IMG/VR virus record: IMGVR_UViG_3300023235_001725
From: a virus
Lineage: Duplodnaviria; Caudoviricetes
Reading direction: 5' to 3' (one strand)
DNA: 64,000 nucleotides
A program made the position numbers and the translations under genes. Shown piece by piece: positions 20,524-28,686 of the stretch. Within the stretch, counting starts at the first letter, position 1; each line of letters begins with the position of its first letter. The notes beneath the pieces were generated by a model that saw only the letters and a program-made list of their open reading frames with translations, had not been told where the DNA came from and made no database searches.

Positions 20524-20595
20524 AGGGGCGTAGGGGGTTCGAACCCCTGACGTACAGGGTTAAAGCCTGATGTTCTACCTCTGAACTAACGCCCC
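20524..20595 (-). tRNA. tRNA with anticodon TTA (ochre-suppressor-like)
   Basis: GGGGCGT-TA-GTTC-AGAGGTA-GAAC-A-TCAGG-CTTTAAC-CCTGT-ACGTC-AGGGG-TTCGAAC-CCCCT-ACGCCCC-T; 7-nt loop with U33 and A37. Confidence 0.85.
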
Positions 20596-23296: not shown

Positions 23297-23332
23297 TTTT
23301 TTAAATTCCAACACGTCAATGAACTTTTGTTG

Positions 23333-23406
23333 TGACAGGAGAAAGATTCGAACTCTCGTCCCCAGGTTTTTAAGGCCTGGTGCTCTAACCGCTGAGCTAT
23401 CCCGTC
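23333..23406 (-). tRNA. Short-V-loop tRNA with a 9-nt anticodon loop CCTTAAAAA (central TAA)
   Basis: GACGGGA...CCAGG-CCTTAAAAA-CCTGG-GGAC-GAGAG-TTCGAAT-CTTTC-TCCTGTC-A. Confidence 0.8.
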
Positions 23407-23455
23407 TGGTGGCGGATTCAGGACTTTAACCTGAACTGGTGCTTATGCATCCGCC
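23407..23455 (-). ncRNA. Mini tRNA-mimic, family 2, copy c; encoded CCA
   Basis: GGCGGA-TGCATAAGCACCAG-TTCAGG-TTAAAGT-CCTGAA-TCCGCC-ACCA. Confidence 0.72.
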
Positions 23456-23459
23456 GTAG

Positions 23460-23527: not shown

Positions 23528-23947
23528 TCATGCGGCTTCTTTACAATTACAACTCTTGAGAGTTGGTTGATTCGTAAATTCTTTGAAAGCAAGTGGTAGA
23601 CTAGATAACCAACGGGCAGATTCTTTCCCTGGTTCTACGGTAATAGACGTGAACTGGTTGTCGAGGTCAGGCTCCTGGAAGGAACTGAAATTAATACCTT
23701 TTTGCGTGAGTTTGTCTCGGAGCTCGATGAGTTCTTGCTCGTCTTTGACTGATAAGAATCCTAAATATGGATTCGATAACCATTTTTCATAAATGGCTGT
23801 GTATTCTTGATTGAATACGTGGAATGAATGCATTCCTTGAGTTGCCTGCGCTCCAGGAGCGAGGTCTCGTCTTACGACGATGTAAAGCTTTAAGTTTTTC
23901 TTCTCTGTAGAAGGGTGTACTTACTGGTTGTCTAATGCTTTTTTCAT
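23528..23947 (-). CDS. PTH2-like peptidyl-tRNA hydrolase with an in-frame TAA at codon 9 (23921-23923)
   Basis: Frame from ATG 23947: MKKALDNQ*VHPSTEKKNLKLYIVVRRDLAPGAQATQGMHS...FQEPDLDNQFTSITVEP. The conserved KLYIVVRxDL..G..A.Q..H block lies upstream of the ORF-track Met. Confidence 0.75.
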
Positions 23948-24051
23948 GACTCTTATTTTTTGTTTGTTTCTGAACCTACTTCTTCAACTTCCGTGCCATC
24001 TGATATTAGATGTCATTTTGTCAGGCTGTAGAGTTGGCTCTCAATACAATC

Positions 24052-24077
24052 TACGACAAAGATATAAAAAAGTTTCA
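24052..24077 (-). promoter_or_regulatory. ECF-type promoter TGAAAC-N16-CGTA with an embedded sigma-A -7 box (TATCTTTG)
   Basis: Exact spacing; upstream of the PTH2/tRNA-mimic cluster. Confidence 0.7.
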
Positions 24078-27062: not shown

Positions 27063-28583
27063 TTATTCCTTAGTTGCAAGCTCAGCAAAATCAACATAAT
27101 TGTTGATAGTGTTGATAAGCGCTCTTTTGTCGACTTCTAGATTGTCAATGACATCAAAAATCTTTTCAGAGAATCCTCTTAGCGCGAATACGTTCTTCTC
27201 TGGGAACTGCATGCTTCCGCTTGCAGCCAAGTTGAACTCGTAAACTTTACAGTCCTGAGCACCGTACTTCTTCTTGTACGCTGCAAACTGAGTTTTTGGA
27301 GTATTGTACTCCATCCACGCTTGCATGTCCGAGAAGATGAATACACGGTCGTATTTCGCCTTCATCTTAACGAAGATGTCTTGGAAGTTCGTTCCGTGAC
27401 CAACCCTGTACTTGCCAACGTTGCCGTAGCCTTGGTTTGTATCAACAATCCAGTTTGCCATACCCATTACTGAGTCATTCACGTTAACTGGAAGGTACAT
27501 TGCGTGTGTTCCAAACGACATTACATCAGCATCACTAGCCTTGGCCATCATGGCTCCAAATAGAGCTGCCACTTTATTCCTGTAAGTTTTACCTCCAGCA
27601 ATTGGGCAATCCATAGAACCTGACAGGTCAATTACGACTGCAGTGTTTCCATCAAACTTTGGAATGTTAGAACAAGCTAGGTCTACGGCGGTGTTAAGCG
27701 CTCTTTGAACTTTCTTAGACTTTGTTCCAGTCAACACTGTAATCTCGTCGAGTGCAGTGATGTATCTGAATGGAAGAATCAGTGACTTCTTAATTCTTGC
27801 CTCTGTAGTCAACAGCTCGCATGCCTTGTTAAGAACCTCGTCAGAAGCATCTTGGATGATGTTTCTAAGGTTTCTTAGAAGAGCAAACTGTCCAATCTTA
27901 CCTGACATAACCAAGTCAGACCAAGCCTCAGCTTTGTTTGCGGCTTTCTCCTCAGAGGTCTTCGCTCCCTGGCCAGCTGCGGACAGCTTAGACTCGAAAG
28001 TGTTTTCACTCTTTAGGGTTCCAGCAACAAGCTCGGCAAGTGCCTTCTCGTTTCTAGCCGTTCCTTTTGGACGAACCAAGTTTACAACGTCAACAAGCGA
28101 TACTTCATTCTTGTCTCCTCTGTACTTGGCAAGCTGGTATGCATCGAACTTTCCGAAAGCTTTCTTGAAACCTTTCTTTAGCGCGTTTGGCAAAGATGCT
28201 TTCTTACCCTCTCTACCGAAGTAGTAGGACATAATCTCAGTCATGTCGTCTGGACGACGTACAATAGCTGCGTAAAACTCTTTAGCCCAGGCCTTACCTG
28301 AGGCGTGCTTAGCGATTTCACCCGCAAGTACGTGGGTGATAGAACGCATTCCAAACTCGTTACGGGCATAGACAGCCGCCTTTGCTGCGAACTCTGGGTC
28401 CACTTTGCTAAGAACGGATGTCAACTCCTTTATTTGGTCTCCTGCCTTCGAATAGAAGTCATCAGACACAAACGAGTTCAACAGAATCGTCACAAGCTCT
28501 AACTCTGGAGTCGACTTATAAGCCTCTCCTCCCGCTTTGTTGGTAGTCATTTCTACCTTTGATTTTTCGTTAAATTTTGACAT
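27063..28583 (-). CDS. Ro60-related TROVE-domain RNA-binding protein with C-terminal vWA domain
   Basis: NKAGGEAY, AKAAVYARNEFGMRS, ALLRNLRN, LPFRY and VVIDLSGSM motifs; start moved to MSKFN. Confidence 0.92.
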   Translation of the reverse strand: MSKFNEKSKVEMTTNKAGGEAYKSTPELELVTILLNSFVSDDFYSKAGDQIKELTSVLSKVDPEFAAKAAVYARNEFGMRSITHVLAGEIAKHASGKAWAKEFYAAIVRRPDDMTEIMSYYFGREGKKASLPNALKKGFKKAFGKFDAYQLAKYRGDKNEVSLVDVVNLVRPKGTARNEKALAELVAGTLKSENTFESKLSAAGQGAKTSEEKAANKAEAWSDLVMSGKIGQFALLRNLRNIIQDASDEVLNKACELLTTEARIKKSLILPFRYITALDEITVLTGTKSKKVQRALNTAVDLACSNIPKFDGNTAVVIDLSGSMDCPIAGGKTYRNKVAALFGAMMAKASDADVMSFGTHAMYLPVNVNDSVMGMANWIVDTNQGYGNVGKYRVGHGTNFQDIFVKMKAKYDRVFIFSDMQAWMEYNTPKTQFAAYKKKYGAQDCKVYEFNLAASGSMQFPEKNVFALRGFSEKIFDVIDNLEVDKRALINTINNYVDFAELATKE

Positions 28584-28686
28584 CTCGTCGTTGTTTATAA
28601 TTGTTGTTATTCTATTAATTCTTTGTTTTTGGCGCATAAAAAAAAAGCACCACATCTTTGCAGAGGGTGCTTTTTCGAAAAATATA

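Follow-up and report, generated by a model that had tools for sequence, protein, structure and literature searches.

The window analyzed here, a stretch of 64,000 nucleotides of phage DNA, carries on its minus strand a PTH2-like gene that stands at the head of a run of tRNA and tRNA-like genes (Table 1); the preliminary description of this DNA had placed it likewise, heading a cluster of tRNA mimics. The reading frame opens at an ATG (23947-23945), continues for seven further codons and meets a TAA at codon 9. Beyond this stop, the same frame (GTA CAC CCT TCT ACA GAG AAG AAA AAC TTA AAG CTT TAC ATC) runs into the conserved strand KLYIVVRRDL and closes at a TGA (23530-23528). In the window, there is no in-frame ATG, GTG or TTG between the TAA and the conserved strand, and no further one between the previous in-frame stop and ATG 23947. 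The start, the position of the stop and the absence of a start codon before the conserved block, as first described, are thus all confirmed by reading the sequence. Since no start codon lies between the TAA and the conserved strand, gene callers begin the PTH2-like protein at an internal methionine and report only 101 aa. The same protein is encoded on a contig of 446,956 bp.

Table 1. Features of the PTH2-like locus and of its surroundings in the window
Feature	Coordinates	Strand	Details
530-aa ORF	27063-28655	-	A few kb upstream; by offset from L008 5251-6771, corresponds to the TROVE/Ro60 + vWA gene of orthologous loci
Conserved upstream block, candidate promoter	24036-24061	-	Kept in L001, L003, L004, L006 and L013
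Eight-codon leader MKKALDNQ	23924-23947	-	ATG AAA AAA GCA TTA GAC AAC CAG
In-frame TAA, codon 9	23921-23923	-	Context always CAG TAA GTA
Ten-codon linker VHPSTEKKNL	23891-23920	-	Without canonical start codon
PTH2-like domain KLYIVVRRDL...KEAA and its TGA	23528-23890	-	Pfam PF01981
Weak YrlA (Y RNA-like) match	23353-23457	-	22 bits; overlaps one of the tRNAs with a 9-nt loop
Two tRNAs with 9-nt anticodon loops, CUUUAAAAC and CCUUAAAAA	23113-23192, 23332-23406	-	ARAGORN, Rfam
tRNA match with enlarged anticodon loop	22920-23062	-	50 bits; insertion of ~70 nt in the anticodon loop
Methyltransferase with internal TAA	21971-22480	-	129 codons, TAA (22093-22091), 40 more codons
tRNA, anticodon UUA (ochre suppressor type)	20524-20595	-	ARAGORN; Rfam tRNA, 66 bits

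The part of the frame that follows the TAA matches the PTH2 family of Pfam with 29.4 bits (gathering score: 23), and the family profile matches solved Pth2 structures with E-values from 9e-11 (2zv3) to 2e-5. An AlphaFold2 model was obtained with a pLDDT of 87, and a Foldseek search of the PDB with it gave Pth2 structures in each of the first 14 places (TM-scores by target of 0.69-0.75 for most of them and of up to 0.75). According to this model, the protein has the alpha/beta fold of Pth2. The catalytic residues of Pth2 are the lysine of a G-K motif and the aspartate of a D-A-G motif. In the profile alignment, the canonical lysine corresponds to an alanine, and the acidic position to an invariant glutamate, E83, with D85 close by. 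Furthermore, the scores are far below the cut-offs of the NCBIfam equivalogs (18.5 bits for a cut-off of 82 with TIGR00283 and 17.2 for 126 with NF003314), and the best match of this divergent branch is phrog_1866, a family without known function. The original designation as a peptidyl-tRNA hydrolase is therefore retained for the fold but not for an active enzyme: because of these low scores and of the replacement of the G-K lysine by alanine, we call the protein PTH2-like and consider its activity as putative. In a comparative study of jumbo phages, PTH2 is presented as a likely ribosome-rescue factor, with no mention of an early stop (PMC7824862).

Upstream of the gene, the conserved block contains GTATATTTG in the orthologues, which we take to fit the Bacteroidota-type -7 motif TAnnTTTG. 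A promoter had been located near 24052; what stands of this proposal is the conservation of the block (24061-24036) in orthologues, whereas a sigma-70 scan gave sites that are no more numerous than in shuffled sequences.

Conservation of the leader and of its stop codon

The DNA of orthologues from the clade of the window was compared for L001, L003, L004, L006, L011 and L013 (62-85% protein identity); L008 and L009 are independent assemblies of the phage from which the window derives. The same TAA is found at the same codon in the window, L001-L006, L008, L009, L011 and L013, and seven distinct lineages spanning this range of identities keep it. The preliminary description took the early stop to be a genuine feature of the gene, and the alignment agrees with this, the TAA being present in all of the orthologues. 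Every sequence compared shows the leader pattern M-K-K-x-L-D-N/H-Q followed by the TAA and then by GTA. Over the seven lineages, the leader codons have a pS of 0.71, a pN of 0.10 and a dN/dS of about 0.05 (0.18 for the PTH2-like body), and the leucine of the leader is spelled with four different codons (TTA, CTA, CTC and CTT). This very low dN/dS, associated with nearly saturated synonymous change, argues that the leader is translated in the frame of ATG 23947 and that the peptide itself is under selection.

None of the seven lineages of this clade has an ATG, GTG or TTG between the TAA and the conserved strand, and initiation after the stop, which would have contradicted the initial proposal, thus has no plausible site there. 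Distant cellular relatives (P0009-P0017) open with M-E/D/Q-K-L-Y-I-V-V; the usual start is therefore two codons before the strand, a position at which the clade of the window has AAC TTA.

In L011 and L013, the linker that follows the TAA is divergent. Synonymous sites at 23885-23930 on the minus strand are unusually conserved among the five closest orthologues (pS of 0.13, compared to 0.41 for the body at 23606-23890 on the same strand); more distant lineages carry a different linker. A hairpin including the TAA is predicted (-5.5 kcal/mol, z of -1.9, no covariation). It was rejected as a stimulator of read-through, since it is weak and its sequence is lost in L011 and L013, where only weak, non-significant hairpins are predicted; no comparable hairpin is found 3′ of the methyltransferase TAA. 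Two other ways of passing the stop were discarded: a frameshift at the A-run that follows the ATG, because the frame of the ATG is already that of PTH2, and ribosome hopping from the CAG, because the sole CAG further down lies in another frame, which a stop soon closes. The search of viral contigs for further orthologues returned none, and the metagenome scan returned one distant partial match (L007), which was left unused. One public gene call, P0004 (112 aa; L004 510-848 and L005 492-830), can be translated only if TGA encodes tryptophan; this call, made with code 4, overran the true TGA stop.

A second internal TAA and the UUA tRNA

The gene run headed by the PTH2-like gene also includes the methyltransferase gene, whose 129-codon part (22480-22094, minus strand) is followed, beyond its TAA, by an in-frame continuation closing at a TGA that overlaps the ATG of the next gene (ATGA). 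Eight lineages keep this TAA, which interrupts the domain in its middle. The gene calls of seven clusters of orthologues are 129 aa long (146 aa for P0023, which has a longer N-terminus), all of them stopping at the TAA. The dN/dS of the 40-codon extension is 0.07 in frame, compared to 1.7 and 2.5 off frame. Furthermore, uninterrupted homologues (43-49% identity) align through the extension, including the motif SFVEDxKTVP. Since the TAA is conserved and the extension is both under selection and covered by uninterrupted homologues, UAA is most probably decoded as sense in this operon. The inserted residue could not be deduced from the uninterrupted homologues, which have T, D, P, P or E at the position of the stop.

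A tRNA with a UUA anticodon, carried by a 7-nt loop (CUUUAAC), is encoded about 3 kb from the PTH2-like gene. The four lineages for which the flanking DNA is long enough (the window, L001, L011 and L012) all contain it; in the last of them, it is located directly 3′ of the PTH2 gene. Comparison of these four copies revealed that 10 of the 21 stem pairs have changed on both sides while 98.8% of the cells remain paired, values that none of 500 shuffles reached, and that the anticodon loop is invariant.

The two tRNAs with 9-nt anticodon loops are directly downstream of the PTH2-like gene. They carry UUA within their enlarged loops, are conserved in orthologous loci and have an anticodon stem in common, which is also nearly that of the UUA suppressor. 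They are possible alternative readers of UAA, and suppressors may travel with such enlarged-loop companions. Elsewhere in the locus, the YrlA match and the TROVE/Ro60 ORF (Table 1) suggest that the phage carries a module of Ro60 and Y RNA.

TAG-type relatives in distant phages

PTH2-like genes were searched for by tblastn in 50,697 phage records and identified in huge uncultured phages, in the cultured Tenacibaculum phage pT24 and in mycobacteriophages. Six distant lineages possess an in-frame leader of two to five codons that ends with TAG instead of TAA: LR756501 (M-S-TAG-IYKLIVV), LR756500 (M-K-TAG-INNHKLIII), pT24 (M-K-TAG-ITKNSN...FRIITRSDL), LR756504 (M-T-TAG-ITKQP...RLVVITR), LR745206 (M-N-N-TAG-INETKLIVITR) and the metagenomic relative L014 (MKKNM-TAG-ISKINDHSK-M-TVVVRRDL). 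In DNA sampled from the five TAG-type phages other than L014, ordinary long ORFs end with TAA in 56 cases, with TAG in four and with TGA in four, TAG thus amounting to ~6%. CUA tRNAs are located 0.8-2.6 kb from the gene in pT24, LR756501 (two copies) and LR756500. Only four tRNA genes are present in pT24, all beside the PTH2-like gene, and the depositors labelled one of them tRNA-Sup; the annotated CDS BPT24_235 of this phage begins 81 nt inside the PTH2 match. Because CUA tRNAs adjoin TAG leaders, the leader stop appears to follow the anticodon of the suppressor (TAA with UUA, TAG with CUA). The nearest cultured relative of the module infects Tenacibaculum. Beside its tRNA-Sup, pT24 also encodes two tRNAs of ~80 nt, of "undetermined" type and with enlarged loops (L019 2013-2092 and 2380-2459).

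The gene of the 735-kb phage LR756501 (L015 3986-4370) is interrupted in frame by TAG at codon 3 and again at codon 37, each time with ATT TAY following, the second TAG lying in the middle of the PTH2 domain. Since the same context occurs in mid-domain, TAG ATT TAY would mark read-through and not a start. If TAG is considered as sense in LR756501, the fraction of the local sequence covered by long open frames increases only from 0.82 to 0.87.

Some of these distant loci count against read-through. In LR756504, a canonical CUA tRNA is absent among the 30 of 45 tRNA matches listed, which include an odd tRNA with CUA in an 8-nt loop. In L014, the gene has its own ATG nine codons after the leader TAG. 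The mycobacteriophages Phabba (L053 371-379) and Grungle (L054 371-379) show GTG-TAG-GTG and ATG-TAG-GTG, respectively. The GTG that follows the TAG is the annotated start of their "peptidyl tRNA hydrolase", and the Shine-Dalgarno spacing favors this annotated GTG. Because of the ATG of L014 and of the GTG of mycobacteriophages, a leader associated with a downstream start is a possible design in some lineages. The arrangement of the mycobacteriophages may derive from the same gate, as a relic or a variant, or may be due to chance. In both phages, a tRNA read as CUA by ARAGORN lies 130-300 nt downstream; the loop of the "tRNA-Pyl" of Grungle seems to be of 9 nt, with CUA inside it.

Probable read-through, its alternatives and known systems

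On the basis of these sequence comparisons, we consider it likely that the PTH2-like enzyme is made by read-through of the UAA depending on a suppressor tRNA. Translation would start at ATG 23947 and meet the UAA at codon 9, where termination would be the usual outcome and would release an octapeptide. With the phage tRNA(UUA) charged, some ribosomes would insert an amino acid at this codon and complete the PTH2-like protein, so that the amount of enzyme would be tied to the activity of the phage suppressor tRNA. The methyltransferase of the same run would be gated likewise. In addition, the leader peptide, which is conserved, may make termination at the codon-9 UAA less efficient. The purpose that we favor is that an enzyme recycling peptidyl-tRNA would be made in proportion to the read-through load caused by the suppressor.

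The different parts of this scheme, some of which were already put forward in the preliminary description, do not have the same strength. The claim that the full-length enzyme needs decoding of the UAA is supported by the conserved TAA, the selected leader and the absence of any other start in the clade. From the co-conservation of the UUA tRNA, the compensatory changes of its stems and the pairing of distant TAG leaders with CUA tRNAs, we infer that the tRNA at 20524-20595 is the decoder; its role and its efficiency, as well as the coupling of the enzyme level to suppression, belong to this inferred part of the scheme. A point against read-through is that, to our knowledge, UAA followed by G is not a leaky context.

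Alternatively, the short ORF could be a separate regulatory leader, the PTH2 body being produced by a restart at the codon next to the stop, i.e. GUA in the window, AUU, AUA or AUC in the TAG-type phages and GUG in the mycobacteriophages. This codon is indeed a canonical start in the mycobacteriophages and, in the TAG-type phages, a near-cognate one; in L014, a true ATG is available nine codons past the leader stop, and strong selection acts on the leader peptide itself. However, GUA departs from AUG at two of its three positions, and we do not know of it as a start codon. Furthermore, a restart gives no reason for the association of the rare TAG with a CUA tRNA and of TAA with a UUA tRNA. At the mid-domain TAG ATT TAY of LR756501, it could not yield a working protein, and the TAA of the methyltransferase is also in mid-domain. 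We therefore regard a restart as improbable.

The UAA could also be read without the canonical suppressor, either by the tRNAs with 9-nt loops or by near-cognate tRNAs of the host under limiting release factors, the latter being the trigger, with the stop acting as a sensor of impaired termination, that the preliminary description put forward beside a suppressor tRNA. The odd tRNAs do carry UUA in their enlarged loops, are adjacent to the gene and kept in orthologous loci, and pT24 possesses two comparable tRNAs beside its tRNA-Sup. Nevertheless, the canonical tRNA(UUA) shows clear structural selection and is sufficient in principle, which makes decoding by these other readers an unlikely explanation.

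Since a tRNA able to read UAA is encoded, an alternative code assigning a sense meaning to TAA throughout the genome should also be considered. However, frames of at least 100 codons in the standard code cover 86% of the window, and TAA terminates 36 of its 60 long ORFs. A codon-usage scan for internal stops with coding-like flanks retained the PTH2-like gene and one other in the 64 kb, and an internal TAA is convincing in two genes only. On the basis of the window, genome-wide recoding of TAA, which still acts as a terminator, was thus rejected as very unlikely. As for a pseudogene with a nonsense mutation or an assembly error, which the shortening of the protein to 101 aa from an internal methionine by gene callers might evoke, it is barely tenable, the stop being identical in independent assemblies and in seven lineages and the frame being intact throughout, with a low dN/dS for both the body and the leader.

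Going beyond suppressor-dependent read-through at this locus, we tentatively suggest that the PTH2-like enzyme and the suppressor tRNA might constitute, in large phages, a conserved and self-regulating "read-through governor", although we regard this as less likely than not. Since the beginning of its mRNA would bear the one stop codon that is read by the suppressor of the phage, the output of enzyme would report the strength of suppression, and the enzyme would act on its consequences, the stop having been switched (TAG to TAA) with the anticodon. Its substrates would be peptidyl-tRNA from ribosomes that have passed normal stops, or charged suppressor or mini-tRNAs. If true, such a governor would be a natural, evolvable and gene-specific extension of the genetic code, UAA included.

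Programmed read-through is used by Qbeta for A1 and by retroviruses for gag-pol; it adds a C-terminal extension, relies on near-cognate tRNAs of the host and provides two useful proteins. The PTH2-like gene resembles these cases by a conserved in-frame stop that would be decoded at some frequency and by selection on the downstream frame. It differs from them in that the stop comes as early as codon 9 (most TAG-type relatives have it at codon 3 or 4), which leaves only a tiny peptide, and in that the phage itself supplies a cognate suppressor. The prfB gene, which encodes release factor 2, has an early in-frame UGA passed by a +1 frameshift and thereby senses RF2. As in prfB, a gene related to the quality of translation has an early in-frame stop and its synthesis would hinge on the handling of this stop; unlike in prfB, no change of frame is needed, and the feedback role is a hypothesis. 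We know of no earlier supported case of a phage that gives a sense meaning to UAA, the commonest terminator, at selected positions, and found no published description of a stop-gated PTH2 gene.

In crAss-like, Lak and other gut phages, TAG or TGA is recoded with suppressor tRNAs (10.1101/2021.08.26.457843). The likeness lies in a phage-encoded suppressor tRNA that makes in-frame stops readable, and recoding has been proposed to time the translation of certain genes. In these phages, recoding concerns only TAG or TGA and affects many genes, mostly late ones, with many stops, whereas the window uses the standard code and has single stops, in the form of TAA, its commonest terminator, in two genes of a tRNA operon. 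No recoding of TAA was found when 10,754 jumbo phage genomes were surveyed (PMC13037316). The Xanthomonas phage XacN1 is a jumbo phage with a standard code that also has suppressor tRNA genes and a peptidyl-tRNA hydrolase; its authors read through all of its 18 amber stops and found no target (PMC5852040), whereas two target genes are identified in the window.

Suppressor tRNAs recur in phages that use the standard code, without an explained role, and this locus offers two concrete targets for them. It also provides a rule that can be tested across phages, namely that the stop codon of the PTH2-like leader matches the anticodon of the phage suppressor. This rule would be useful for annotation, since gene callers truncate such genes, as illustrated by the CDS of pT24. 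Furthermore, since both pT24 and the Tenacibaculum that it infects are available in culture, a direct test of the mechanism is possible. In a synthetic circuit, the combination of an in-frame stop and a suppressor tRNA was used as an AND gate that removes leaky expression (PMC7969014). That gate was engineered, and the locus described here would be its natural counterpart.
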